Shown: piece by piece, positions 3 to 62,870 of the stretch | How the letters are laid out: every line of letters starts with the position of its first letter | Position numbering within the stretch: position 1 is the first letter of the stretch | Assembly: GCA_044224515.1 (NCBI GenBank) | Contig: JBGAKH010000002.1 | Coordinates: 355,817-419,816 of the forward strand | Source of the DNA: Chlorobiota bacterium | Lineage (GTDB): Bacteria > Bacteroidota > Ignavibacteria > Kapaibacteriales > NICIL-2 | Direction of reading: 5' to 3' | Length of the DNA: 64,000 nucleotides | The notes under the pieces: generated by a model | Databases searched by the model: none | What the model was told of the DNA's origin: nothing | What the model saw: the letters and a program-made list of their open reading frames with translations, nothing else | Program-made: the position numbers and the translations under genes

Positions 3-500
3 TTGCGGGCTTTATCTGCACAACGCGTGATCGAAGTGGGTTCTCTCGCCGGCTACTCGGCTTTGAAAATGGCAGCTGCGCTGCCTGAGGGGGGTGTGAT
101 ACACTGCTTGGAACTCAATCTTGACTACTGCGACTTCATACGTCGCAAAGCTCATCAATGCGGACTGAGTCATAAAGTGCAGGTTCACCACGGTCCGGCA
201 TTGGAGAGTTTGGAAGCTCTGCAGGAATCAGCTCCATTCGATTTTGCTTTCATCGATGCCGACAAGCCAAATTATCTCAACTATTTCAATACACTTTTAC
301 CAATGATGCGAGTTGGTAGTGTTCTATGTGCAGACAACACCCTGGCCTGGGGCGAGATTGCAAATCCTGAGACGGAGTTTGAGCCGCATAATGTGCGCGC
401 GCTGCAGGAGTACAACCGTGTTGTGTCAAGCCATCCCCAAGTTCTTTCCACACTTGTTCCACTAGGGGACGGCATGACACTTTCGCTCAAACTGTCGTGA
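3..500 (+). CDS. Class I SAM-dependent O-methyltransferase (caffeoyl-CoA OMT-like family 3), 5'-truncated by the window edge
   Basis: Motifs VIEVGSLAGYSAL (SAM-binding glycine-rich loop), FDFAFIDADK and NYLNYF are typical of O-methyltransferase family 3. The ORF runs off the window start. Confidence 0.7.
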   Translation: MRALSAQRVIEVGSLAGYSALKMAAALPEGGVIHCLELNLDYCDFIRRKAHQCGLSHKVQVHHGPALESLEALQESAPFDFAFIDADKPNYLNYFNTLLPMMRVGSVLCADNTLAWGEIANPETEFEPHNVRALQEYNRVVSSHPQVLSTLVPLGDGMTLSLKLS

Positions 501-521
501 TACGAATTCTGAACGATCTTT

Positions 522-1544
522 CTAGAGGCGGATAAACTCGACTCTTCTATTCTGAGCTTTAGCCTCGACCGAGCTTTCTTTCACTAAAGCTTTGGTACTG
601 CCATATCCTTTCGAGATGAGCTGCTCGGCTGCAACTCCACGTTGAATCAAGGCGGCTTTCACAGCGTCGGCACGAGCTTGGGAGAGAATCATGTTTGCCT
701 GAGCGTTGCCGTCACTGTCTGTATGACCTTGGATTTCGTATCGAGATTCGGGCACTTCCTTGAGCTTGTCTGCGATGTCGTTCAAGAGTGTTTCAGACGA
801 CTTCAGCAGCGTTGATTGTCCCACCTCGAAATGCAAGGCATGACTAATGTAGCGTCCACCTTTCCATTGCGTTCCCAGTTCAGCCCTTCCACCTCCGTTG
901 GCAATACGGAAGTTCTTAAAGAGCATGCTCATGTTCGATGAAGCGTCGCCAACGAGCAGTAGTGAAGTGGGAGATTGATTCCATGCCGGCGAGGATAGCA
1001 CAAACTCATGGTTGCAAAACACCTTGAGAACATTGTCTTCGAACTGCAGTTCTATGTGATGCCATCGGTCATAATACAACTCGTGCACAACACTTGCTGG
1101 CGTTGGAGTACTCACACGGTTGGAGCCCAGAGTTAGACTAAACTCATCGCGGTTCGGCGTGAAATGCGCAATCTCTGCTTTACCCATGAAGATCAGCGAA
1201 ACTCCCGGATTTCCATCGTAACCGGCAGCCAACCAGGTGTCGAATTCAATGGTCCATCGCTTCCCAAGAACACTCTTTGATTTCATCTTGGGCGACATTT
1301 TCGTGTAATACTGATCGATTGACACACAACGCTCGTTGGCGTTGAGGATAACCGAAGCCTTACCTCCAAGAATCTTCCAGCCGGACGGAGCTGAGCTGAG
1401 CGCGTCCAAGGGACGATCGTCGAACAGTGTGGAGTCTCCGGGAACAAAATCATAGTGTGTCTCGCTTGATTGCGCTTGACCGATAACGCGTCCCATAAAA
1501 ATCAAGGGAAATAGAAGCATGATGGTTCGTAGTGCAATACGCAT
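522..1544 (-). CDS. OmpA-family protein: N-terminal signal peptide and a C-terminal OmpA/MotB peptidoglycan-binding domain
   Basis: Signal peptide MRIALRTIMLLFPLIFMGRVIGQAQS. The C-terminus RYEIQGHTDSDGNAQANMILSQARADAVKAALIQRGV...NRRVEFIRL is a canonical OmpA-like domain. Start set at ATG 1544; the ORF track extends it upstream to 1625. Confidence 0.7.
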   Translation of the reverse strand: MRIALRTIMLLFPLIFMGRVIGQAQSSETHYDFVPGDSTLFDDRPLDALSSAPSGWKILGGKASVILNANERCVSIDQYYTKMSPKMKSKSVLGKRWTIEFDTWLAAGYDGNPGVSLIFMGKAEIAHFTPNRDEFSLTLGSNRVSTPTPASVVHELYYDRWHHIELQFEDNVLKVFCNHEFVLSSPAWNQSPTSLLLVGDASSNMSMLFKNFRIANGGGRAELGTQWKGGRYISHALHFEVGQSTLLKSSETLLNDIADKLKEVPESRYEIQGHTDSDGNAQANMILSQARADAVKAALIQRGVAAEQLISKGYGSTKALVKESSVEAKAQNRRVEFIRL

Positions 1545-1655
1545 ACTGTATAGACTGATAATGAAAGATGCGATTCGAAATTGGTTATATTGAACGGCGA
1601 CGGAAAGGACAAAACATCCGCCCACTTTCCGTCTTCAACACTCCGAATTCACTAC

Positions 1656-3002
1656 ATGATTGCTGAGCTTATTGCCTCCCTTAGCGAAGCGGAGCGCCGC
1701 AGCCTCGAGCTAAAGATTGCTGCCAAGCCGACGCAGTTACATCTTTTTATAGGCGAGTTGCTTCGCAACCCGCAGGCCACACAGAAAGAACTTCAAGAGA
1801 AGCTCGGCTTGGCATCCAACACGGTCTTTAAAAACTTAAGTCTAGCCAAGGACGAGATCTACGAGGTCATCAAAGAACATTTGCGCAATCCTTACGATGA
1901 TCTGCTGCTGCCAAACCTCCTCTACAAACGAGGCTTGGGAACGCACGCGTCTAAACTGCGCATCAAGCTCGAGCAACAGTATGACCAACAAGGCTGGTGG
2001 AATGTCTTACAAGAATTCTACAGCATGGAGATGATTGTCGCTTATGCTGCCTGCGATATTCCGTGGCTCAGCGAGTTGCGAGACAAAGCAGCCAAAAACA
2101 TAGAGCGCATGCGTGAGTTGGTGCTCGTGGGAAATGACATCATTGTCCTCATGGCGACGGTTGAGAAAGGCCGTCTGCTGGAAAAAGAGGTACCTGCTCT
2201 CGTGAAGAAACTCCGGGCTGCTTTGAAGCGCGCACAAAGTTTGGATCACCCTGTGCCAATTTTCAACGCCCTGCATTCACTCTTTGTCATCCATACCCAA
2301 TACCTGATTGATGTCTCGAAGGCTAACGATATCATGAGCACGGTGCATGACTTAGTCAACAACTATGATGAGCGACTGATTCCCTATGCACGAAACGTTG
2401 CGTGGCTCAATACCATGGGCTTCTATGCAGAGTTTAATGTGGGCATATCTCCGGAGCAGTTTATCAAGAAAGCTGAGTCGGGAATTGCGAGCAGAAGTTT
2501 GCTCTTTGATGCTCAGGCTCTCTTGAGTATTTGCAGTTACCACTTTTTGGAGCGTGATGTAAAGCGCTTCGATGAAGCATTTAAGCGTTATACCGACCTC
2601 CCTTCTGAACAGAGCTTTGGTTACAAGAAGAACTATTTGAGCTGTCTTCATTCCTATCTTCACAATGACAGCGCTGAGTTTCAGCGACAACGCAATGAGT
2701 TCTATGCCCAAGAAGAGAATCGAGCCTACTCGGATTATGACCTTATGATCCGCTATCTGGAGATCTTGACCATCTTGAATCAGAAGCAATTTGAACTCGC
2801 AGAGGACAAACTGGAAGCAGCGAAAAAATTCGTCCGACGTCATTTCAGCGAGTCGCGCATCAAGCACGAGAAACACAATTGGGACCTGCTCACTTCGGCC
2901 ATGGGACTCAAAGCGAAGAGTTCTACCGCAGAACCGGTTTTCCGAGTGACGCGCTTTCTACAAGCCGAAATGCGCAGCAAGAAGACGGGTAAACCATCAT
3001 AG
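1656..3002 (+). CDS. Putative transcriptional regulator: N-terminal helix-turn-helix followed by a long all-helical (TPR-like) domain
   Basis: The segment ATQKELQEKLGLASNTVFKNL looks like a classic HTH. The remainder is predicted helical with no catalytic motifs. It is paralogous to the product of 32763..34181 (shared N-terminal pattern LSEAERRSLELKIAAKP versus LSPDVRRRLPESVKLSS). Start chosen at ATG 1656. Confidence 0.4.
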   Translation: MIAELIASLSEAERRSLELKIAAKPTQLHLFIGELLRNPQATQKELQEKLGLASNTVFKNLSLAKDEIYEVIKEHLRNPYDDLLLPNLLYKRGLGTHASKLRIKLEQQYDQQGWWNVLQEFYSMEMIVAYAACDIPWLSELRDKAAKNIERMRELVLVGNDIIVLMATVEKGRLLEKEVPALVKKLRAALKRAQSLDHPVPIFNALHSLFVIHTQYLIDVSKANDIMSTVHDLVNNYDERLIPYARNVAWLNTMGFYAEFNVGISPEQFIKKAESGIASRSLLFDAQALLSICSYHFLERDVKRFDEAFKRYTDLPSEQSFGYKKNYLSCLHSYLHNDSAEFQRQRNEFYAQEENRAYSDYDLMIRYLEILTILNQKQFELAEDKLEAAKKFVRRHFSESRIKHEKHNWDLLTSAMGLKAKSSTAEPVFRVTRFLQAEMRSKKTGKPS

Positions 3003-3390
3003 AAGAAGGGATGCGAGCGCCGCATGACCACCTTTGTTCCGGCCCCGTCGGCAGAGCCTTTTTGAGCATTTTGGCAGGATATCACAACGACAGCAGACAT
3101 TCTCCCGACCGGTGGTGTGGCCCGCTATGCATGGTGTACCGGAGTTTTGGACAGTGCCGGGTCTATGACGACATCGACTAGAGTCCGTATCGGTTTATAG
3201 TGTGCAACTTCAAACTCCGGTAGAGAGTCGGCCAACTTTGCAACACTAGCATTACGACAAACGACTCCTTTGCCCCACCTTGAAATAGACTCATGTCTGC
3301 ATCGCGACTGAAGACAAGGTGCTCAGACAGCGGAAAAATGTCTATTTTCGTTACGCAGCATCACTATCGCACCACGCGTATCATAGCGGC

Positions 3391-5577
3391 ATGGTTCGAC
3401 GTCTCAAACCCTTTCCTTTTATTAAACAACGTGACATGACAGAGTGTGGAACCACCTGTCTGGCCATGGTGTTTAAGTATTACGGACTTACCAATATTCA
3501 AGCGGCTCTGCGAGAGATCGCCGGTGTCAGCGCGCGCGGTTCTGATCTCTACACATTGTCACTGGTGGCCGAGCGCTTTGGCTTTCAAACGGAGGGGGCC
3601 CGGATCAAGTTTGATCATCTACAGAAGATCCCGCTGCCTTGTATCGCCCATTATGAGGGTAACCACTTTGTTGTTGTCTACAAAGCAACCGCGCACGATG
3701 TCTGGATTGCAGATCCGGCTTCAGACAAAGAACGACTGAGTAAAGAAGAGTTTCAAAGCAAGTGGAATGGAGTTGTCCTTGCATTGGATCCCGGAAAAGA
3801 AGTCTTTGCCTCGAAGGATGTTGTGGAAATCGCTGAACAGTATTCTCGGCGACAAAAGTTCGTCACTCGCGCCTTCTATTCCTCGCTGCTCTTTCCATTC
3901 CGAGCGGTTCTGCGCGACGTAGTCATCGCCTCTTTTGTCATGACCTTGTTGGCTTTGGCTCTGCCATTCTTGACACGCGTCGTTGTAGACAACGTACTGG
4001 TCTTCCAAAATCAAAACCTGCTTTACGCCATACTGCTGGCTATGCTGCTGGTTTTTGTGCTGCAGGTTGTGTTGACCTATGTGCGACATCTCCTATTCGC
4101 TCAAATGCGAATCGAGTTTGAGTTTGAGTTCTTCAGTCGCTTCTTTCGACACTTCACACAACTCACACAAGCCTACTTTGATTCTCACAAAAGGGAAGAC
4201 TTCGTTCAGCGCTTTCAAGAGAATCTCAAGATCCGCAACCTCTTCAGTGCCGGAACTCTGCAGTCTGCCCTTGATGTTGTTCTCCTTTTCATACTGATAC
4301 CGGTTCTTTTTAGCTTTCATACATCTCTAGCACTGTGTGCCACAGCTTTCCTCTTTGCGTTTATTGTGGCGACCGTGATTTTTACACCACGCATTCGTCG
4401 CCTGCAAGAAAAAGTCTTTCATGAAAACGCTAAGACAATGGGGTCGTTTCTCGACTCTTTGATTGGTATGCCGACTATTAAACTCCTCTCGGCAGAAACG
4501 CTGAAGTATTGGGAATGGCGGCACGTTTATAAACGCGCCCTCAACAAAGTCTTAAGCGCCTCTCAAAGCCAGATCATGCTCAATTCGGTTCTGCGCACGA
4601 TCATCTTTAGCGGACAAGTCAGCATGTACTGGTATGGAGCTTATCTGAGCTTTCATGGCGAGCTGAGTATCGGCCAATACATTGCGTTCATCAGCATATT
4701 CAGTATGATGATGAATGCGGCAAGCACAGTCAGCGACTTATGGTTTGTGATTACCGACCTTAGTGTGACCTTTGCCCGTTTGAACGACGTGTTTATGCAG
4801 GAGCCGGAGAACGCAGATCTGGCAACGCAGCTCACCGAACTCCATGGGTCGGATATTGAGATCTCCTCGCTCACATTCTCCTACGACGAGAGCGACCATG
4901 TGGCACTTCGTAACATTCAGCTACGTATCGCCGCAGGTGAGCATATCGGTGTGGTCGGACGCAACGGTAGCGGTAAAACGACTCTTGCGAAGTTACTGGT
5001 TCGACTCTATGATAACTATCAAGGTTCTATCAGCATTGGTGGAACAGAGTTGCATAATCTGCATCCGCAGTACCTGCGACAAAAAGTCGCAATGATTCCG
5101 CAAGACGTGCATCTCTTTAATGGAACCATTCGCGACAACATCGCAATGGCGCGTCCCGATGCTACTATGGATGAGATTATTGAGGCTGCACGAAAAGCAG
5201 AGCTGCATGATTTTGTCAGCAGCATGTACCTAGGCTATAATCAGAAGATCGGTGAAAGCGGATCGGGTCTCAGTGGTGGTCAACGTTTGCGCATCGCCTT
5301 TGCTCGATTGTTCTTGACGAATCCGGATATTATTATTCTCGACGAAGCAAGTTCGGCGCTGGATGTCATTGCCGAACAGAAGATCATGCAGCGGGTACAC
5401 GAACATTTTAAGAGCGCCACCATTATCTCAATCGCACATCGATTGAGCACCTTGCAAAAAGCTGATCGTATCGTTGTTCTCGACGCTGGTCAACTCGTTG
5501 AACTTGGTACACACGAAGAACTCGTGCAGAAACAAGGTACCTACTTCCGTTTTGTAAAAACCTATGTCGACTTCTAA
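3391..5577 (+). CDS. ABC transporter with N-terminal C39 (double-glycine) peptidase domain; bacteriocin/peptide-exporter type, ATP-binding plus permease
   Basis: C39 catalytic Cys context QRDMTECGTTCLAMVFKYYG with a downstream His (IAHYEGNHFVVV). Six-TM core. Walker A GRNGSGKTT, ABC signature LSGGQRLRIAFAR, Walker B IIILDEASSALD. Start at ATG 3391 (MVRRLKPFPF...) preferred over the GTG at 3319. Confidence 0.8.
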   Translation: MVRRLKPFPFIKQRDMTECGTTCLAMVFKYYGLTNIQAALREIAGVSARGSDLYTLSLVAERFGFQTEGARIKFDHLQKIPLPCIAHYEGNHFVVVYKATAHDVWIADPASDKERLSKEEFQSKWNGVVLALDPGKEVFASKDVVEIAEQYSRRQKFVTRAFYSSLLFPFRAVLRDVVIASFVMTLLALALPFLTRVVVDNVLVFQNQNLLYAILLAMLLVFVLQVVLTYVRHLLFAQMRIEFEFEFFSRFFRHFTQLTQAYFDSHKREDFVQRFQENLKIRNLFSAGTLQSALDVVLLFILIPVLFSFHTSLALCATAFLFAFIVATVIFTPRIRRLQEKVFHENAKTMGSFLDSLIGMPTIKLLSAETLKYWEWRHVYKRALNKVLSASQSQIMLNSVLRTIIFSGQVSMYWYGAYLSFHGELSIGQYIAFISIFSMMMNAASTVSDLWFVITDLSVTFARLNDVFMQEPENADLATQLTELHGSDIEISSLTFSYDESDHVALRNIQLRIAAGEHIGVVGRNGSGKTTLAKLLVRLYDNYQGSISIGGTELHNLHPQYLRQKVAMIPQDVHLFNGTIRDNIAMARPDATMDEIIEAARKAELHDFVSSMYLGYNQKIGESGSGLSGGQRLRIAFARLFLTNPDIIILDEASSALDVIAEQKIMQRVHEHFKSATIISIAHRLSTLQKADRIVVLDAGQLVELGTHEELVQKQGTYFRFVKTYVDF

Positions 5578-5823
5578 GCAGATACTCTGCTCAGAAGTAC
5601 AAAGTTGTCGGGCAGCGAAAAGTGCTCCGGGAGGCTCGGTTTTTTAGCTACTAAAGCTTGCTGCAAACCGTCAAGGCCTCCGCGACGTCCAAGACTTTGA
5701 TCATCATCGCATTGAACCATGAACCTCAGAACAACACAGACTTGCGAACAGAGCCCGGATGCAGGGGCTTTAGCGGGCATCGCGAATGTCCTAAAGTCTG
5801 TCTGTATATGCGACAAAGCAGCG

Positions 5824-6540
5824 ATGCGGTTATACCACTGTGTTAGAATCACGTTTCTCATGCTGATACTGCTTAGCTGCAGTATGAACGCGCAAAAAGC
5901 CGGAAAGCGTGATGCAGACCCGGATCCTGAGGATTTCTTGATGATGGATAAAGAAGCCGTTCTGGATCGTCCTTCTCTACAAAAAGCATTCGTATATCCT
6001 GATTCAGCTCGTAAAGCCGGTTTGCAAGGCAAGGTTGTCGTTAAAGTATTGATCGGCAAAAGCGGTAAAGCTGAGCGTTACCTCGTTGTTGAATCGGTAC
6101 ATCCCCTTCTCGACAGCGCCGCGGCACGCGCCGTCATGAGCGCAAACTTTAGTCCCGCCGGATATGCAGGCGAGAATATCAAGAGCTGGATGGAAGTTCC
6201 TATAACGTTTAAGATGAATGCCGGACGTTCTCAGCCCGTGAAGATTCAAGGTGATATTGAAGGTGATGGGTACCAGCGCAGCCAGTTCGACACCAAAGTC
6301 TTCTACGATGCGTTGGATAAGAATCTTCTTCAAGCACTGAAACAGCCGACAATCAATGTTTCGATTACTGTTGATGCGAAAGGACGTTGCACTGCGGTAC
6401 AGAGTCCCGGTGTGCTACCCGAAGCCGTACTGAACAATATTCGTCAAGCCTTGCAACAGCAGCAATTTGTACCGGCATTGAGAGATCGAGTAGTTGCGGA
6501 AGATCACTTGACCCTTATCATTGAGACGCAAGCACGATAG
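5824..6540 (+). CDS. TonB C-terminal domain protein (putative lipoprotein)
   Basis: Signal/lipobox-like N-terminus MRLYHCVRITFLMLILLSCSMNA. The segment AFVYPDSARKAGLQGKVVVKVLIGKSGKAERYLVVESVHPLLDSAAARAVMSANFSPAG...WMEVPITFKM matches the TonB_C fold signature. The ORF track extends the N-terminus to 5719. Confidence 0.55.
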   Translation: MRLYHCVRITFLMLILLSCSMNAQKAGKRDADPDPEDFLMMDKEAVLDRPSLQKAFVYPDSARKAGLQGKVVVKVLIGKSGKAERYLVVESVHPLLDSAAARAVMSANFSPAGYAGENIKSWMEVPITFKMNAGRSQPVKIQGDIEGDGYQRSQFDTKVFYDALDKNLLQALKQPTINVSITVDAKGRCTAVQSPGVLPEAVLNNIRQALQQQQFVPALRDRVVAEDHLTLIIETQAR

Positions 6541-6764
6541 AGTTAGAGTTAAGTATCACGTGGCCTAGTTTTAGCCTAACTCTAACACCTTGTCTGCAAT
6601 CCTGCTCAACGCCGTTTTGAGATCGCTAAAAATCACACCCCACAGTACCATACATGACATCAGATCAGCAAGCGGCTGCGCAGCAGCCGGATGAAGAACA
6701 TACATCTCGCTCACTTCAGCAATCCGGAAACATCGAGCAGAGTTCAGGGTTGCAGAAACGCAGC

Positions 6765-7772
6765 ATGCCGAGACGTCGCTTTTTGACCGGTCTTGGTTGG
6801 ACGTTGGGCGCAGGAGGCATTGGATTTCTCGGTCTCACAAGCATCGGTGGAGTGCAAGCACAAGGTCTGCTGAATATCGTGCGAAGCGCATTGACGCATA
6901 AACACAAGGTCGACAACCAGCCACCTGCACTTGCGGTACACACACGGAGTTTTGCTTCGGAGCAATGTGTAAAGTGTTTGGTTCTGGGTGATTGGGGTAC
7001 CGGTGATGCGTTTCAAAAGCGAGTGGCTCAAGCGATGGCAATAGTTGCCGAACGGGAGCATCCGCAGTTTGTCATTAGCACAGGAGACAACTTCTATCCT
7101 AGTGGAGTTGAGTCGGCCGAAGACAAACAATTTCAGACCAAATGGAAAAACGTATATAACGCCTCCTCGCTGAACATCCCATGGATTGTAAGTCTTGGAA
7201 ACCATGATTATCGCAAGAGTGCGGAAGCACAAATAGCCTATTCAAAGAAGGACTCCATGTGGCTTATGCCTGCTCGGTATTATACCATCCGGCGTCAGGA
7301 AGGAGAGATAAGCTGCGAGGTCTTTGTGTTGGATACCGAGGGATTGGTTCACGGTTCCAAAGCCGAAATCCGCACCCAACTCGAGTGGTTTGAACAGTCT
7401 TTGAAGTCTTCGAACGCGATGTGGAAAATTGCGGTAGGTCACCACATGATTCGCTCTCACGGTGCCTACGGTGACCAATCGTTTATGCTCAATTTGGTAA
7501 AACCCTTGCTTGACCGGTATGGAGTACAGGTCTACCTGAATGGTCATGACCACGATCTGCAATATTTGAAAGCGCCGGAAGACAGCTTCATATGCGTGAT
7601 ATCGGGTGCAGGAGGGGGGGCTAGAAATACTTCGTATGGAAAAAATACGCGTTTTGCTGCCACAAATGGCGGGTTTGTGTATCTGGCCGCAACCAAATCT
7701 GTGCTTCACCTCGAGTTCTACAACGCTGAGTCGGAAGCTTTGTTCGCAGAAGATGCGGTACGACGAGGCTAA
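6765..7772 (+). CDS. Tat-exported calcineurin-like metallophosphoesterase (purple acid phosphatase / ACP5-like)
   Basis: Twin-arginine motif MPRRRFLTGLGWTLGAGG. Metallophosphatase motifs GDWGTGD, GDNFY, GNHDY, GHHM, GHDHDLQY. An internal G7 run lies at 7614..7620. Confidence 0.75.
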   Translation: MPRRRFLTGLGWTLGAGGIGFLGLTSIGGVQAQGLLNIVRSALTHKHKVDNQPPALAVHTRSFASEQCVKCLVLGDWGTGDAFQKRVAQAMAIVAEREHPQFVISTGDNFYPSGVESAEDKQFQTKWKNVYNASSLNIPWIVSLGNHDYRKSAEAQIAYSKKDSMWLMPARYYTIRRQEGEISCEVFVLDTEGLVHGSKAEIRTQLEWFEQSLKSSNAMWKIAVGHHMIRSHGAYGDQSFMLNLVKPLLDRYGVQVYLNGHDHDLQYLKAPEDSFICVISGAGGGARNTSYGKNTRFAATNGGFVYLAATKSVLHLEFYNAESEALFAEDAVRRG

Positions 7773-7797
7773 AGTGCGATCAATCTATGAGGAAAGA

Positions 7798-7806
7798 GGG
7801 GGGGGG
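7798..7806. repeat. Homopolymeric G9 tract in the intergenic region upstream of the GT2 gene
   Basis: Direct read: ggaaagaggg|ggggggctat gives nine consecutive G at 7798..7806. A second G7 lies inside the phosphatase ORF at 7614..7620. Confidence 0.8.
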
Positions 7807-8073
7807 CTATATTGCTGGTGCATCGGCTGGGTCCTACTCGTACCTAGAACTCATCCTCGAGTATATGCAGAATGATTGCCCGCTTGTTCGATGAGCAGCA
7901 CAGGTGTAGCACCGTAGGGCTTATTGAATAGCTCATGAGCTCTTGGAAGCTTGCAAACTGGTCCATTTGTTGCATACTCTGCGTATGTACGCTATGTTAG
8001 TGTGCGTGCCGGCAAGTGCACTTCAACGGAATGAGCAGGCCGAACAACAAGTATCACCCAGGAAATCAGCCAC

Positions 8074-9345
8074 GTGGCACAAGAATCACACGAAGAATCA
8101 CCATCAGCGCGTCCGGACGCACAAGAGGCCGGTGCGCAGCCGAACCGAAACAAGCGAAACCGATATGGACGTCGTAACGATCGACGCCATGGCGGCTCAC
8201 GTAAGAATGAACAACGCGAAGGCTCCGAAACAGGTCGAAACGACGCTGATTTTCGCGAAAACACAGATTCCATGGTAGCCGAGTTGCGTGAAGGAGCTGA
8301 GGATACGGCGATCGAAAGCACAGAAACACCAAAGCGTCAGGACCGTTCAGAGCGACGTCCACGTCAAGACCGTGGAGAGCGATTCGATCGATCGCAGCGT
8401 GGACCTCGTTCAGCTAAGCCATCCATCAGCGTCGTCATTCCTTTGTTAAACGAAGAGGAATCGCTGAACGAACTTGCGGCCAGATTAGCTCCTGTGTTGG
8501 AAACGGAGAGCGCAGGTCGTTATGAGGTCATCTTTATCGACGACGGCTCAACGGACTCATCGTTTGAAGTATTGCGAGCATTGAATCGTCGCAACGGACG
8601 TTTTCATGCCCTTCGCTTTCGTCGCAACTACGGAAAGTCGGCAGCATTGGCAGTGGGCTTTGCAGCGGCAAAGAATGATGTCGTGATAACCATGGACGCC
8701 GATCTGCAAGATGATCCTTTGGAGATACCCAATCTTGTTGCAAAGATCAATGAAGGCTATGACTTAGTCAGTGGCTGGAAAAAACGTCGCAAAGATCCTC
8801 TTGAGAAACGTCTTCCTTCGAAGTTCTTCAACTTTGTGACCTCGACAGTCAGCGGTATCAAGCTTCACGATTTCAATTGCGGATTAAAAGCCTATCGCAA
8901 AGATGTCATCAAGACTGTGCAAGTCTATGGTGAAATGCACCGTTACATTCCTGCTCTTGCTCACTGGGAGGGCTTCCGCATTGCTGAGCTACCGGTAACG
9001 CACCACGCGCGAAAGTTTGGAAACTCTAAGTTTGGTTTTAGTCGATACTTCAAGGGCTTCTTGGACTTGTTGACCGTGGTGTTTACGACGCGCTTCATTA
9101 AGCGACCCTTACACTTGTTTGGAACACTGGGGGCACTCTTTACACTCGTTGGCTTTGGTATCGACCTGATGCTCAGTATCGAGTGGTTTTTGCATCAAAC
9201 CTCACTTACAAATCGTCCGCTGATGCTGATGGGCGTTGCCTTCATCATTGTGGGTGTGCAGTTGATTTCTATCGGTTTGATTGGGGAAATGATCGTAAAA
9301 AACAACCTCTCACATGCCGAGTACAGTATCAAAGAACGTCTATAA
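8074..9345 (+). CDS. Family 2 glycosyltransferase (polyprenyl-phosphate / DPM1-ArnC-like) with an Arg-rich low-complexity N-terminal extension and C-terminal TM helices
   Basis: GT2 core ISVVIPLLNEEESL...VIFIDDGSTDSS...NYGKSAALAVGF...TMDADLQDDP with two or more C-terminal TM segments. The N-terminal ~115 aa are rich in R/N/D/E (NRNKRNRYGRRNDRRHGGSRKNEQREG...). The start is uncertain: GTG at 8074 or ATG at 8272. Even from 8272, about 50 charged residues precede the domain. Confidence 0.7.
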   Translation: MAQESHEESPSARPDAQEAGAQPNRNKRNRYGRRNDRRHGGSRKNEQREGSETGRNDADFRENTDSMVAELREGAEDTAIESTETPKRQDRSERRPRQDRGERFDRSQRGPRSAKPSISVVIPLLNEEESLNELAARLAPVLETESAGRYEVIFIDDGSTDSSFEVLRALNRRNGRFHALRFRRNYGKSAALAVGFAAAKNDVVITMDADLQDDPLEIPNLVAKINEGYDLVSGWKKRRKDPLEKRLPSKFFNFVTSTVSGIKLHDFNCGLKAYRKDVIKTVQVYGEMHRYIPALAHWEGFRIAELPVTHHARKFGNSKFGFSRYFKGFLDLLTVVFTTRFIKRPLHLFGTLGALFTLVGFGIDLMLSIEWFLHQTSLTNRPLMLMGVAFIIVGVQLISIGLIGEMIVKNNLSHAEYSIKERL

Positions 9346-9493
9346 CGTAGTGGCAGGCACGGGCATATTTGGGAGTTCTATGCTACGGCCGACATGGTTT
9401 TTTGGCATTGCGCATCGGATTATGAATTCATGGAATCATGATATAGTATATTGCAAGCAGAGCCCATTTCCCACACTGAACGCCAACTCTTTC

Positions 9494-10342
9494 ATGATTT
9501 CTCGCATCCTACGTACCACCGTAACGCTTGTAGCGTTTCTGAGTTCAGTGCTGCTGACAGCGCAGGATCAAACGATACCTGCCATTGCCGTGCCTGCACA
9601 GATCACGACAACGGCAAAGAGTCAGACCATCGTGAAGGGCGCATCAAACAACGACTACTTCAAACTTGAGCTTGGATTCAGTGCCATGTTTTTGGGTGCT
9701 GATCAAGGTGCAACCAAGTCGATCTTCTTGCCCAAGAACGATACTGCTTATGTAACCGGATCCAGCTTTTTCGGCGCACAATCCGGCTTAAGTGTGCGCG
9801 CCAACTTTGAATTAGGCGCGAACAAACGTATCAACATCCCTGTCGGCATCGACTACACCTTCTTTAGCGGCTCACAGCGTTTGCCCTCAGCTACAATCAT
9901 TCAGCACGGCAATGTCAGCGTGAATGTGTTGACCTTGGTTGCGGGTGGACAGTACCGTCTTGTAGACTTGCCACTTGCCAACGCATTTCTCTACGCCGGA
10001 GCTGAGCTTCGCGAGTCCTATTGTCCCGGACCTCGTTTTATTTATGAAGAGTCAGACACACTCGACCCCAAAGTGAGTCATGTGGTGATGGACTCAACAC
10101 TTAAAAGTGATGTCTTCCGCTTTGGTGGAGCACTGCGCTTTGGCTGTCAAGGGGAACTCAGTGATGCTTTGTGGATCAACGTCAACGTTGCCTACGGAAT
10201 CAACAACCTTCTTGGACGTGATGATCGCAGTAGCGGCCCTGAGCGTCGCGGACAACTTCTTACCCCTTCTCGTGTAAACGAGACAAACGAAGCTTTCTCA
10301 AAGTTCCTGCAGTTTGGTATTTGGCTGCAGTATCGTCTCTAA
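9494..10342 (+). CDS. Secreted hypothetical protein, probably an outer-membrane beta-barrel
   Basis: Signal peptide MISRILRTTVTLVAFLSSVLLTAQDQT. Alternating beta-strand-like pattern, G/aromatic-rich, C-terminus ...FGIWLQYRL. No enzymatic motif. Confidence 0.4.
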   Translation: MISRILRTTVTLVAFLSSVLLTAQDQTIPAIAVPAQITTTAKSQTIVKGASNNDYFKLELGFSAMFLGADQGATKSIFLPKNDTAYVTGSSFFGAQSGLSVRANFELGANKRINIPVGIDYTFFSGSQRLPSATIIQHGNVSVNVLTLVAGGQYRLVDLPLANAFLYAGAELRESYCPGPRFIYEESDTLDPKVSHVVMDSTLKSDVFRFGGALRFGCQGELSDALWINVNVAYGINNLLGRDDRSSGPERRGQLLTPSRVNETNEAFSKFLQFGIWLQYRL

Positions 10343-11786: not shown

Positions 11787-12329
11787 ATGCTACTTGGTTT
11801 ATCATCGGGAGCGTTGGATCAGCGATTCGCAGCGCAGCGAGATTCTCTATGGTGTTGGGCTGCATCGTTACAGATGATTTTTCACCATTATGGTGTTCGA
11901 CTACCTCAAGAGCGTATTGTTAAAGAGGTGTTTGGTTCGACTCCCTGGGGTACGGCACCCAATAAACCGGCGGACTTCTTACACATAAGCAAGGTTTTGA
12001 ACAGGGGCGGAGTCGACAGTGTCGGACGACGTTTCCATGTAAAAAGTATGCTTATGCCGGGTGCTCCCAATACAGAAACGTTGGCTGAGGAGCTGTCTGC
12101 GCAGCGTCCTGTACTACTCAGTTACCAGAGTCGTCCGCGCATGAACCACGCCGTGGTCATCACGGCCATGGAACTAAGTGCACAACAGAATGGATTAGTC
12201 TTCAAGCGTATGGTTGTGAGAGATCCCAACCCCAAAGCGCAAAACCGGGCACTGAAAGGACGTCGAGAAGTGCGTCCGTCGACACTTCTGTCAAAAGCGG
12301 CTGCTCATTGGATCATCCGCGTTTGGTAA
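11787..12329 (+). CDS. Minimal papain-fold (clan CA, C1/C39-like) cysteine peptidase domain protein
   Basis: SLWCWAASLQM resembles the papain active-site CGSCWAFS. NHAVVITAM resembles the papain His motif HAVxxVGY. C-terminal HWIIRVW resembles YWIVKNSW. No signal peptide. Homology judged by eye only. Confidence 0.4.
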   Translation: MLLGLSSGALDQRFAAQRDSLWCWAASLQMIFHHYGVRLPQERIVKEVFGSTPWGTAPNKPADFLHISKVLNRGGVDSVGRRFHVKSMLMPGAPNTETLAEELSAQRPVLLSYQSRPRMNHAVVITAMELSAQQNGLVFKRMVVRDPNPKAQNRALKGRREVRPSTLLSKAAAHWIIRVW

Positions 12330-19330: not shown

Positions 19331-19470
19331 TGGTGCCGGCTGAACGTCGCAGCTAGCGGACACCGCGTCGGTTGTATTTTTGCTGCTTGTCTTCGCTGCT
19401 AAGTCGCGAAGAGGGGAGCCGAACCACTCCTGCGCTAAACCGTTCGAACATCACCTGTAGGTCTCTATTT

Positions 19471-20682
19471 ATGACGCTGAAACACGTTCGCGAGCAGCGA
19501 CTCTTCGTTGTTGCTCTCTTATTGATTCTCATCGATCAAGTCACCAAAGTGTGGATCAAAGGATTTCACATTTTGGGTTTGGTGCATGAAGGCATGCCAC
19601 TGGAAAGCAGCAGACAGATCTTCGGCGAGTTGCTTCGCTTTAGCTACGTGGAAAACCCCGGGATGGCTTTCGGCGTGTCGTTCGGAAGCGCAAAAATCTT
19701 CCTTAGTCTCTTCTCAATCATAGCCGCCGGAGGTTTGGCGTGGTACCTCCACAAGCTGCGTCACTCGACGATATGGGTGCAACTGGGTGTGATGCTTCTG
19801 CTAGCCGGGGCGGTGGGAAATTTGATTGACCGCGTTTTCTATGGATTGATCTACAACGAAGCACCGTTGTTTTACGGCAAGGTTGTGGATTTTATCGATG
19901 TGGATTGTCCTGATTTTAGTCTCTTCGGACACAGCTATACCCGTTGGTGGGTCTTCAATGTTGCGGATGCCTGCGTGAGCTGTGGTATAACGCTCCTTGT
20001 CTTGTTCAATCACAAGATTCCAACGCTCAAGAGTCTTGACAGTCGCTTCCATGTGTCGAACGATGAAATACACATTGAGGAGTACAATCCCCAATGGGCA
20101 CATGAATTCGCAGAACTTAAGACGGTGCTGGAACGTAGCCTGGGCGGCAAAGCGCAAAGCATAGAGCATGTCGGTAGCACTTCGATTCCCGGTTTGGCTG
20201 CCAAGGCAGTAATGGATGTCGACATCGTCATCGCTGAACAGAGCTCGTTGGATGAGATTCGTACCACCCTTGAAGCATTGGGTTATGTGTATGAGGGCGA
20301 TAAAGGTATTCCCGGACGTGAAGCATTCCGTCAGAGCGACTCCATGGTTCCGCATGGTAGCGGTCACCGATGGATGCGTCAACATATGTACGTCTGTGCC
20401 TCCGACTCTCTAGCCCTGGCTGAACACCGACAGTTCCGTGAGGCGCTTCTGAACTCAAGCGAGCTTCAAGCACAATACGTGGCACTCAAACGTGAATTGG
20501 CAGAGAAGTTCCGATTGGATCGCGAAGCCTATACTAACGGAAAGGCCGACTGGATTCGCTCAGTTCTGTCCGCCGCCACTACCACAACTCCCAGTGTGGA
20601 AAACAGCCCGGAAGAAGCGTCCGACACGGCTGCAACCGACCAAAGTGACGAGTCGGAGAGCGAAGATTTTAAATCAGTGTAA
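19471..20682 (+). CDS. lspA: Fusion protein: lipoprotein signal peptidase II (LspA) fused to a GrpB-family (nucleotidyltransferase-fold) domain with acidic tail
   Basis: N-terminal half: LspA motifs ENPGMAFG, VVDFIDVD, FNVADACVS within four TM helices. C-terminal half: GrpB signature SIEHVGSTSIPGLAAKAVMDVDIV...RQFREAL...YTNGKADWI. The reading frame is continuous, 403 aa from ATG 19471. Confidence 0.7.
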   Translation: MTLKHVREQRLFVVALLLILIDQVTKVWIKGFHILGLVHEGMPLESSRQIFGELLRFSYVENPGMAFGVSFGSAKIFLSLFSIIAAGGLAWYLHKLRHSTIWVQLGVMLLLAGAVGNLIDRVFYGLIYNEAPLFYGKVVDFIDVDCPDFSLFGHSYTRWWVFNVADACVSCGITLLVLFNHKIPTLKSLDSRFHVSNDEIHIEEYNPQWAHEFAELKTVLERSLGGKAQSIEHVGSTSIPGLAAKAVMDVDIVIAEQSSLDEIRTTLEALGYVYEGDKGIPGREAFRQSDSMVPHGSGHRWMRQHMYVCASDSLALAEHRQFREALLNSSELQAQYVALKRELAEKFRLDREAYTNGKADWIRSVLSAATTTTPSVENSPEEASDTAATDQSDESESEDFKSV

Positions 20683-57442: not shown

Positions 57443-57517
57443 GGGCGCTTAGCTCAGCTGGTTCAGAGCATCTGCCTTACAAGCAGAGGGTCGGGAGTTC
57501 AAATCTCTCAGCGCCCA
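57443..57517 (+). tRNA. tRNA-Val (anticodon TAC)
   Basis: Manual cloverleaf fold. Acceptor GGGCGCT/AGCGCCC, D-arm GCTC-AGCTGGTTCA-GAGC, anticodon stem TCTGC/GCAGA with loop CTTACAA, variable loop GGGTC, T-arm GGGAG-TTCAAAT-CTCTC, discriminator A. No encoded CCA. Confidence 0.9.
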
Positions 57518-57525
57518 CATCCAAA

Positions 57526-58574: not shown

Positions 58575-59140
58575 CGAACGCCGGCTTCGCTGGCTTCGAC
58601 TTCGCTGGCTTCGGCTTCGCTCAGCCAGCGAGGAGTTAGAGTGGGATCTGCTTTACCGGCTGGCTTCGGCAAAGCAGATCACTGCCTGAGCGAAGCCGAA
58701 GCCAGTGTTGGCAAAGCAGATCACTGCCTGAGCGAAGCCGAAGCCAGCCGGCAAAGCAGATCGCTGGCTGAGCGAAGCCGAAGCCAGCCGGCAAAGCAGA
58801 TCGCTGGCTGAGCGCAGCCGAAGCCAGTCGGCAAAGCAGATCACTGCCTGAGCGCAGCCGAAGCCAGTCGGCAAAGCAGATCACTGCCTGAGCGCAGCCG
58901 AAGCCAGTGTTGGCAAAGCAGATCGCTGGCTGAGCGAAGCCGAAGCCAGTGTTGGCAAAGCAGATCGCTGGCTGAGCGCAGCCGAATCCAGCGTTGGCAA
59001 AGCAAATCACTGCCTGAGCGCAGCCGAATCCAGTGTTGGCAAAGCAGATCACTGCCTGAGCGAAGCCGAAGCCAGTGTTGGCAAAGCAGATCGCTGGCTG
59101 AGCGCAGCCGAAGCCAGCGTCGGCAAAGCAGATCGTTCAG
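58575..59140. repeat. Tandem array of 11 full units plus one partial 40-42 bp direct repeat, preceded by an inverted partial copy. Each unit can fold into a hairpin.
   Basis: Units start at 58668, 58710, 58750, 58790, 58830, 58870, 58912, 58954, 58996, 59038, 59080 and 59122 (partial). Consensus: GGCAAAGCAGATC[ACTGCC/GCTGGC]TGAGCG[A/C]AGCCGAA[G/T]CCAG[TGTT/CC/TC/CGTT]. 58580..58667 carries reverse-complement copies (CTTCGCTGGCTTCG x2; GCTCAGCCAGCGA). There are no unique spacers, and the 40-nt units break every reading frame. Confidence 0.85.
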
Positions 59141-61468: not shown

Positions 61469-61780
61469 TTACCACTGACAACAACTCATCTCACTGAAAT
61501 TCCGGTAGTACTGCATTATCACATCGACGCGACAGCGGGCTATCTTGCTTGCCACGTCGAGCGGAACCCGCGCCTCACAAAGCCTTGAAATGAAGGTCTT
61601 CCTGAACTCATGAAACGCTCTGTTCTTCTTTGGTATGCCTAAAACGAACATTGCTGCATCCAGCCGCTTGCGAAGCATTCTATAGGTCTCTCGCCGGCCG
61701 TCATAACTGAACATCTTACCGCTTTTCAATGCCGGCATGATGATCGCATCAGGATTCATACGCCTCTCATAGAAACTCAC
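61469..61780 (-). pseudogene. Truncated tyrosine recombinase (phage-type integrase): catalytic C-terminal fragment only
   Basis: Contains the HxxR (HEFRKTF) box, a second-Arg region (ARCRVDV) and the catalytic Tyr context IMQYY. It lacks the N-terminal core-binding domain and box I Arg. The upstream side is AT-rich with no ORF. Confidence 0.6.
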
Positions 61781-62870
61781 CTCGCCCTAACTTTTGTCAG
61801 CAAGAATCTGTTAAGTGCGAGTGTGCACGATGCGTTTTTGGACAAAATTAATTGCAGCAAATCGTCTCGCTATCTCCAAGTGCAAAGTTGTCGCCTTGCG
61901 TTTCGCAAGAAGGATATCTATACTGTAGCTACAACAGAACTCGAAATACACTCATACGTAGTTGGTATGGCTTATTCAACGAAAACATAATATTACTATG
62001 TCTGAATAGATTAAATGAGTGCGGTGTGGAGCGCACGCCTTCGTGTGTGGATGGAAGGCTTCGAGAATTTAAAACATGTAAATAGAAGGAAGAAGTAAAA
62101 TAATTATCGATTGCAAAATATATTTACCCTAGGATAGTAACGATTTGTTCATTATTAATTTGAGTCGAGATCACAAAGCTCCAGTGAACACGGTTTAAGG
62201 AGATCTAAGCAATAGCTACCACTTTCACTTTTATGTAAATAGTGAACGTACGCATCCTTGGGAGAGGTTTATGTAGCGTTGAATCAACAGAGAGTGCATA
62301 GTATTTCTATTGGCAAAGTGTCTCACAATAACCTCCATTGTGAGATAGCTTTAAATAGTAGGCAGGTTGAAATTGGGTAGTTTGAAAGTTCGAGCGTCTT
62401 TACGCGCCTCAATCAGTGGATTGCTCCCATATGGTTTGACAAAGACCGTGCTTGGTTATTAAAGGACTTAGCATAATTTTCAGCATGTACTTTGTGCACT
62501 AAACCAACCCTTAGCTCGAATTTAGTTCGCCGGAAAGCACAAAAGGTGTGTATATAATCTTGTAAAAATCCTGACCGTATCCATGGAAAAATATAGGTTA
62601 CATGCTCCCAATCCGGCTCCTTCGAGCTGAAGGCATTGTGCTAGCTGGTCTCAACTATTTGGGTATTATGATCCGGTAGTTTCATTCGCGCTCCCTTTTA
62701 CACTGCTCCACATGCTTCCGACACCATGTCTCGCTTATTCTGCCGTTAGGCCTCTGGTTATGCTAAGCTTGTTGTCATATAGTCATGCAACTGCATGTTA
62801 CCGATCCTTTACACTGACTACAGCCGCACTCTCATAGTTTTGCCTACATTCTGCACTATCAAACTCAATC
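61781..62870. other. About 1.1 kb AT-rich non-coding stretch (probable remnant or boundary of a horizontally acquired element)
   Basis: No ORF above 80 aa on either strand. GC is visibly lower than flanking DNA, with runs such as taaatagaaggaagaagtaaaataattatcgattgcaaaatatattta. Confidence 0.5.

Follow-up and report, generated by a model that had tools for sequence, protein, structure and literature searches.

How a bacteriocin-type exporter works when none of its usual partners is encoded beside it is the question raised by a gene for an ATP-binding cassette (ABC) transporter of the peptidase-containing kind (PCAT), located at 3391..5577 on the plus strand of a 64,000-nucleotide stretch of DNA from a Chlorobiota bacterium (contig JBGAKH010000002.1; this whole 64-kb stretch is hereafter called the window). 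Such orphan PCATs of double-membrane bacteria are poorly understood. A first-pass annotation of the window had noted that neither a small double-glycine (GG) leader peptide nor a HlyD-type membrane-fusion protein was visible near the gene, and had left open whether the exporter is an orphan with a substrate encoded elsewhere or whether a tiny peptide gene had been missed. Our analysis favored the former: we consider it rather probable that the gene encodes a functional, vertically inherited PCAT whose cargo GG peptides are encoded elsewhere, which has no adaptor alongside and whose neighbors stand there by chance.

Domains, active site and selection of the transporter

The predicted 728-aa protein consisted of a C39 peptidase, a six-helix exporter membrane domain and an ABC ATPase, as revealed by Pfam and by alignment with PCAT1 of Clostridium thermocellum. 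Peptidase_C39 (PF03412) matched residues 8–136 (3412..3798; E = 2.7e-36), ABC_membrane (PF00664) matched residues 178–443 (3922..4719; E = 5.7e-33), and the nucleotide-binding domain spanned residues 506–723 (4906..5559), with the ABC_tran (PF00005) match at residues 506–654; all of these lie on the plus strand. End-to-end alignment with the PCAT1 structure 4RY2 (E = 6e-116) placed Gln13 (3427..3429), Cys19 (3445..3447), His92 (3664..3666) and Asp108 (3712..3714) opposite the oxyanion Gln and the Cys/His/Asp triad of PCAT1, and showed that Walker A (GRNGSGKT), the LSGGQ signature, Walker B (ILDEAS) and the H-loop (AHR) were all intact. In a set of 78 homologues, Lys529, Ser628, Asp651 and Glu652 of the nucleotide-binding domain were kept in all 78 and His683 in 77, and Cys19 and His92 were retained in every full-length homologue. 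Since the catalytic Cys19 is present, the protein does not belong to the HlyB-type transporters, whose C39-like domain (CLD) is degenerate and inactive and whose cargo is an RTX protein with a C-terminal signal. These features assign it, as far as sequence can tell, to the active-type PCATs (also called AMS or bacteriocin-type exporters), and it would be expected to cleave leaders and to drive export with ATP. Among NCBIfam models, the highest score came from TIGR03796 (NHLM_micro_ABC1), the transporter of the NHLP/Nif11 export system, at 494.8 bits, far below the cutoff of 853.3, and TIGR01846, of the HlyB type, scored 454 bits against a cutoff of 726. By these scores the predicted protein falls short of every curated NCBIfam equivalog and is best called a generic PCAT; NCBIfam searches found no NHLP or Nif11 precursor and no partner gene of the TIGR03794 or TIGR03797 type in the window.

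The choice of start codon affects the active site directly. The public protein record (P0001, on a 508,393-bp NCBI contig) is 713 aa long and begins at Met16, and several relatives are also annotated at 713–715 aa with a Met16-type start. This start, at the end of the stretch 3391..3438, removes the conserved FPFIKQRD segment and with it the oxyanion-hole Gln13. The orthologues at two close relatives, L001 and L002, are 728 aa each and share with the window protein the N-terminus M(V/F)(R/Q)RLKPFPFIKQRDM; position 3391 is therefore the better start, and the database start at Met16 is an annotation that loses the oxyanion-hole Gln.

Comparison of the window gene with the 86% identical orthologue at L001 gave a ratio of nonsynonymous to synonymous substitution rates (dN/dS) of 0.027, with synonymous sites near saturation and a proportion of nonsynonymous differences (pN) of 0.10–0.14 against the 86%- and 81%-identical orthologues. 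C39 was the least-changed domain at the protein level (pN 0.067–0.086, vs 0.15–0.19 for the ATPase, in three close orthologues), and the four catalytic C39 residues were identical in the window, L001 and L002. The window PCAT is under strong purifying selection. The first-pass claim of an intact Cys/His C39 domain was thus confirmed by Pfam, by the PCAT1 alignment and by conservation in L001 and L002, and the degenerate active site that would have undermined it was not what we found, with all four residues intact and under purifying selection. In all three of these genomes the gene lies between an O-methyltransferase gene and a pair of TonB_C and Metallophos (phosphoesterase) genes; its immediate flanks differ among them despite this constant chromosomal position.

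Adaptor and cargo genes at solo and operonic loci

A scan of the 60 gene-like open reading frames (ORFs) of the 64-kb window against Pfam gave no match to a HlyD family or to an OEP family of outer-membrane factors. A hidden Markov model (HMM) built from 44 sequences of the cognate HlyD family likewise had no match at E ≤ 10 in the window or at any of the solo loci described below, and no HlyD gene was found beside L001 (4 kb upstream) or L002 (10 kb upstream). The earlier statement that a HlyD membrane-fusion gene is missing thus held for the whole window, by both approaches. A HlyD-family profile search of 5.8 billion proteins recovered 40 members, several of which share contigs with operonic PCATs, and none of the 40 lay on a contig of 508,393 bp, the length of the window's contig, or came from named NICIL-2/Kapabacteria genomes. 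A 493-aa gene convergent with the NICIL-2 PCAT at L003 was considered as a divergent HlyD and rejected; it is repeat- or tail-fiber-like and unrelated to the HlyD family.

Comparison of homologous loci revealed two kinds of organization. Two loci, L008 and L027, were found by scanning genome contigs with the PCAT alignment, and the others by homologue look-up. All nine loci that we compared within the window's own group were solo, with no adaptor within 4–10 kb on either side of the PCAT (only 0.2–1 kb downstream in L093). They comprise the window clade (window, L001, L002 and L093; 70–100% identity), a NICIL-2/Kapabacteria clade (L003, L004, L007 and L091), in which the PCAT gene lies 33–84 bp behind purA, and L092 (protein P0049), where the PCAT is solo as well. 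In these lineages the PCAT stands among housekeeping genes, with different flanking genes in each lineage. At all six distinct operonic loci compared (L005, L006, L008, L088/L089, L090 and the outgroup L027), a HlyD-family gene is the next gene downstream of the PCAT, with an IS605 OrfB insertion between the two in L006. The 44-sequence HMM matched this gene at 1e-141 to 1e-179 in L005, L006, L008, L088/L089 and L090 and at 6e-15 in L027, and the HlyD genes of L005, L006, L008 and L088/L089 were mutually related (phmmer, 1e-43 to 1e-121). In a neighbor-joining (NJ) tree of the 78 PCAT homologues, the solo PCATs formed one group; bootstrap values were 98% (window clade), 100% (Kapabacteria clade) and only 62–66% (their union). 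The window's PCAT group is Chlorobi/Kapabacteria-like, and the solo state marks this whole deeply diverged lineage, kept under strong purifying selection, a hint that an exporter without an adaptor and with cargo encoded in trans may have a stable role there. An apparent second PCAT in one genome (P0003 and P0083) was rejected, as the two proteins belong to different assemblies.

The sister operons (L005, L006, L008, L088 and L090) encode the nearest homologues outside the solo group, 46–56% identical to the window PCAT and with the same domain set and catalytic residues, but with an adaptor and, at four of the five (L005, L008, L088 and L090), with tiny GG precursors of 20–49 aa whose cores measure 4–22 residues. 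Three of these precursors were retrieved by the GG filter from Sulfidibacter corallicola (L090), a Flavobacteriales metagenome-assembled genome (MAG; L008) and a metagenome contig (L005): a leader ending in KLSKSDLRFIAGG with the core NGTANTNDDPNDEASKKKVKVK at L090 (13952..14101, plus strand), a leader ending in LDASELKKVKGG with the core QTPLHRNTQIKGKGQIS at L008 (9335..9475, plus strand), and the leader MQKLTKNEMKKVAGG with the core KVVRRN at L005 (13781..13846, minus strand). Their cores are hydrophilic and basic, at 6–22 aa. The gene after the L090 precursor encodes a Cys-rich 363-aa protein without a Pfam match. L088 carries seven tandem 20-aa ORFs on the plus strand (32..1172), with the leader MKKLNVNQTNxIVGG, the core GPVLQ and the core variants PVIQ, PILQ, PVLN and PLLQ; they are followed at 1359..7805 by an Asn-synthase-like gene, the PCAT, the HlyD-family gene and a gene for a LuxR-type response regulator. 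None of the seven mini-ORFs is annotated as a gene, and judged by its sequence the locus looks like a peptide cluster with cores of 4–5 residues. Such loci show how small the cargo in this PCAT family can be and how readily its genes go unannotated. The contrast with the sister group narrows the search for the cargo of the solo PCATs to very short GG precursors, regularly missed by gene callers.

The contig measures at least 508 kb; the window takes in 64 kb of it, with only 3.4 kb upstream of the PCAT gene. A regular-expression search of its six frames (ORFs of at least 18 aa, and ATG-start ORFs of at least 12 aa) identified no GG-leader gene; the matches obtained were all inside larger genes or antisense to them. 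The regular-expression and loose filters were validated by their recovery of the 20–49 aa precursors beside the sister-group PCATs L005, L008, L088 and L090. The bacteriocin-leader HMM search that the first-pass annotation had proposed was run on the 82 intergenic small ORFs of the window; with E values up to 1 allowed, NCBIfam and Pfam assigned none of them to a bacteriocin or leader family. By tblastx, neither spacer of the PCAT gene (3003..3390 and 5578..5823) was conserved in L001 or L002; the sole match, 17 residues long, was to L093 (E = 9e-4). No GG peptide was found beside L001 or L002 in the upstream 4 and 10 kb, respectively, or beside the six remaining solo loci. The absence of a small GG-leader gene from either flank, as claimed earlier, was thus borne out by regular expressions, HMMs and tblastx alike. 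A cognate cargo gene at the same locus is usual for PCATs, but membership of the protein family does not depend on it.

The favored reading and its rivals

In the reading that we favor, the PCAT would act as a homodimer, as inferred for its family (PMC8277102; PCAT1 structures). Its cytoplasmic C39 domain, with Gln13, Cys19, His92 and Asp108, would bind a double-glycine leader and cut after Gly-Gly, and ATP binding and hydrolysis would drive the freed peptide through the membrane domain. The cargo would be one or more small GG-leader peptides from elsewhere in the genome. With no dedicated HlyD-type adaptor alongside, the cargo would be either released to the periplasm, as proposed for HetC, or passed to an unlinked adaptor and outer-membrane channel. 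Of the two options raised at first pass, that of an orphan exporter is the one supported, by an intact and selected active site together with the lack of an adaptor or GG gene in the 64 kb and beside the orthologues.

Known systems provide both parallels and contrasts. PCAT1 (PDB 4RY2, 6V9Z) has the same three-domain layout, catalytic residues and ATPase motifs as the window PCAT; however, it functions in a single-membrane host and is encoded beside its cargo CtA, whereas the window PCAT has no cargo gene nearby and belongs to a double-membrane host, for which the window contains several markers (OmpA-C, TonB_C, LspA, a family 9 glycosyltransferase (GT9) heptosyltransferase and C-terminal sorting domains of the type IX secretion system (T9SS)). 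The colicin V system CvaB/CvaA/TolC, which exports a class II microcin, likewise relies on an active C39 ABC exporter to carry GG-leader peptides through the envelope of a Gram-negative cell (PMC8277102), but CvaB is encoded with the adaptor CvaA and with microcin and immunity genes, none of which was found in the window. In function and context only, the window PCAT resembles HetC of Nostoc PCC 7120, an active-site-bearing PCAT in a double-membrane host without a nearby membrane-fusion or GG-peptide gene, for which no substrate is known and periplasmic release has been put forward (PMC10986499). HetC differs in having an extra N-terminal domain that binds cyclic nucleotide monophosphates (PMC10986499), whereas Pfam found none in the window PCAT, where C39 begins at residue 8. 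Orphan PCATs such as HetC are already known, and the window locus is otherwise an ordinary family member. What it adds is a clean contrast between solo PCATs that are strongly selected in one lineage and close relatives that elsewhere sit in operons with an adaptor and GG precursors, and it offers a testable case of adaptor-less export into the periplasm.

Several points weigh against the favored reading. That the cargo is encoded elsewhere is deduced from its absence in the 64-kb window, a small part of a contig that measures at least 508 kb, and an adaptor from an unrelated family may be present in another part of the genome. The HlyD database search uses a word prefilter, which divergent members can escape. 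Transport and cleavage activity are deduced from sequence. The union of the solo PCAT clades has an NJ bootstrap of 62–66%, and a single ancestral uncoupling of the PCAT from its adaptor is plausible rather than firmly shown. A wider scenario can be offered as a tentative possibility, to which we lean less than to its opposite: the solo lineage (window clade, NICIL-2/Kapabacteria clade and P0049), which is Chlorobi/Kapabacteria-like within the Fibrobacteres–Chlorobi–Bacteroidetes (FCB) group, may have lost the adaptor and linked peptides once, and its PCAT, retained under strong purifying selection among housekeeping genes and in one clade directly behind purA, may by now be a housekeeping exporter, not a bacteriocin-cluster accessory, that processes unlinked GG peptides or proteins, probably very short ones, and directs them to the periplasm. 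Since solo-lineage PCATs are only about 53% identical to each other, such a loss of the adaptor and linked peptide genes would have occurred long ago.

Among the rival explanations, one is a split type I secretion system, in which a dedicated HlyD adaptor, a TolC-like channel and the GG genes would now lie elsewhere in the same genome and export would cross both membranes as in CvaAB-TolC. It accords with the facts that adaptors and outer-membrane factors are the usual partners of PCATs in Gram-negative bacteria (PMC8277102), that outer-membrane factors such as TolC are often unlinked, and that our view is limited to 64 kb of the genome. We nevertheless judge it unlikely, as the adaptor gene follows the PCAT directly in every sister locus, is missing from all nine solo loci over the distances given above, and has no representative from the window's contig or from named NICIL-2/Kapabacteria genomes among the 40 family members. 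A very small or atypical cargo gene overlooked in the flanks would fit the sister cargo ORFs, which go down to 20 aa and have non-canonical leaders, and the spacers are long (388 and 246 bp). The filters that recover 20-aa ORFs were nonetheless negative in the intergenic DNA of the window, as were the HMM scans and Rfam; the spacers showed no tblastx conservation with L001 or L002 apart from the short L093 match and a promoter-like motif; and the upstream spacer is reduced to 111 bp in L002. The missed peptide gene proposed at first pass is therefore very improbable for these flanks.

Even less credence is due to two further explanations. In one, which we reject, the PCAT would form a single module with the TonB-C lipoprotein encoded downstream of it, with the protein encoded upstream, which combines a helix-turn-helix (HTH)-like part with tetratricopeptide repeat (TPR)-like helices, or with both, for example to signal by peptides through an RRNPP-like receptor. 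In its favor are the adjacency of the genes in the window, weak Foldseek matches of the HTH-TPR protein to AimR and NprR, and sister-group cores of 4–6 aa, which resemble signaling peptides. Against it, L001 and L002 have no HTH-TPR gene next to the PCAT, and five loci of the HTH-TPR family lack a nearby PCAT, one of which (L095) leaves no space for a downstream peptide gene; the TonB_C gene has four genes between it and the PCAT in L002, is missing from the solo loci other than the window, L001 and L002, and is separated from the PCAT gene in the window by a terminator-like site. In the other, the gene would be a decaying relic, or a non-peptide exporter with a dispensable peptidase. The lack of partner genes nearby is compatible with this, as are the replacement of Gln13 by Met in P0008, P0049 and L093 (in an extended reading frame) and of Asp108 by Asn in P0008 and P0049. 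A relic is ruled out by the low dN/dS (about 0.03), the conservation of C39 as the least-changed domain and the identical catalytic residues; the gene shows no frame defects, and Cys19 and His92 occur in every full-length homologue, which speaks against either form of this explanation.

Flanking signals, neighboring genes and other features

Alignment of the upstream regions of the window, L001 and L002 revealed one conserved motif on the plus strand, TATTTTCG..ACGCAGCA at 3343..3360, 31–48 nt before the ATG, which resembles TAnnTTTG and may represent a -7 promoter box of the Bacteroidota type; no other part of the 388-bp spacer was conserved. A terminator-like hairpin followed by a T-run on the plus strand (5627..5649), 50 nt past the PCAT stop codon, suggests that the PCAT and TonB-C genes may be transcribed separately; terminator-like sites were no more frequent than expected by chance in the scanned region, and no equivalent follows the PCAT in L001 or L002. 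A sigma-70 promoter scan gave only chance-level results. Rfam, at gathering and E-value thresholds, found no RNA element beside the PCAT, and the folding z-score of the downstream spacer (-1.15) indicated none.

The gene downstream of the PCAT (5824..6540, plus strand; alternative start at 5719) encodes a TonB_C-domain protein (PF03544, E = 2.9e-20; TIGR01352), a probable lipoprotein of 238 aa if the Met ahead of the signal peptide is taken as its first residue. The signal peptide ends in Cys19 of this protein, a residue that both orthologues, at L001 and L002, share without change, and TonB_C is followed by an additional domain of about 100 aa. The protein has no Pro-rich spacer, its N-terminus is lipoprotein-like and not an ExbB/ExbD-coupling membrane anchor, and Pfam scans found no ExbB or ExbD gene among the ORFs of the window; we classify the predicted product as a TonB_C-domain protein and not as a canonical TonB. 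The first-pass proposal to look for co-occurrence of the PCAT with TonB-C genes in relatives gave a negative answer: the TonB_C gene always adjoins the Metallophos gene and goes with it rather than with the PCAT, from which it lies 3.7 kb away in L002, with four genes between, and it was not found at the solo loci other than the window, L001 and L002. Relative to the window, L001 contains an insertion between the Metallophos gene and a family 2 glycosyltransferase (GT2) gene, at 9041..9985, which consists of an 87-aa ORF of RELMC/REMMY repeats (a DNA tandem repeat) adjoining an IS200-type Y1 transposase gene.

The gene upstream of the PCAT (1656..3002, plus strand; alternative start at 1581) encodes an all-helical 448-aa protein with a weak match to HTH_24. 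Its AlphaFold2 (AF2) model, built from 24 homologues (pLDDT 89), showed an HTH-like bundle followed by a TPR-like superhelix. It has relatives in a conserved family of hypothetical proteins, about 440 aa long and without a Pfam domain (30 database matches, 31–62% identity), in which the named matches are Bacteroidota and Chitinophagales MAGs and the genomic contexts vary. At L095, the gene is separated by only 15 bp from a convergent gene, and no conserved small ORF was found downstream of the gene in the window or at the family loci. The Foldseek matches to AimR and NprR (E = 0.025–0.075, TM-score ≤ 0.56) stood amid generic TPR proteins, and with neither a PCAT nor a propeptide linked to the family, an RRNPP-like peptide-sensing role was rejected. 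The first-pass description of the two neighbors, a helical HTH protein upstream and a TonB-C lipoprotein downstream, was correct according to Pfam, the AF2 model and the invariant Cys; the relevance to the exporter at which it hinted was not borne out, as the adjacency is not conserved beyond the closest relatives, and both proteins are probably incidental neighbors of the PCAT.

The remaining content of the window is largely of a housekeeping kind, including enolase, LspA, a Clp ATPase, an arginine operon, a β-ketoacyl synthase (KAS), an extracytoplasmic function (ECF) sigma factor, glycosyltransferases and an aquaporin. About 6 kb downstream of the PCAT, between genes for the GT9 heptosyltransferase and a thioredoxin, a plus-strand ORF (11787..12329) encodes a stand-alone papain-like peptidase of 180 aa (Peptidase_C70/AvrRpt2, E = 4.6e-9; Peptidase_C39_2, E = 1.2e-4), which occupies the same place in L001 (14374..14925). 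In a single 436-aa plus-strand ORF (19372..20682), signal peptidase II (Peptidase_A8, residues 47–211) precedes a GrpB domain (residues 233–399); either the two form an unusual fusion, or a pair of genes happens to share one open frame.

The only RNA gene of the window encodes tRNA-Val(TAC) (57443..57518). About 4 kb past it, in the region 61469..62870, a minus-strand ORF of 103 aa, the end of which resembles a recombinase fragment by eye, is followed by a 1.09-kb stretch without a convincing ORF, and the region from the tRNA onward may be what is left of an integrated element. The spacer before the Sortilin/T9SS-tail gene is taken up by a tandem repeat at 58668..59134 (42-bp unit, 11.3 copies, 92% matches; consensus GGCAAAGCAGATCACTGCCTGAGCGCAGCCGAAGCCAGTGTT), and a 15-bp repeat lies at 58585..58621. 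The plus-strand GT2 glycosyltransferase ORF carries, at 8074..8420, an N-terminal extension of about 115 aa that is highly charged, of low complexity and rich in Arg, Asn and Glu; the DNA there has a strong AT skew (0.30 over 8001..8500), and the true start codon of this gene may lie further downstream.

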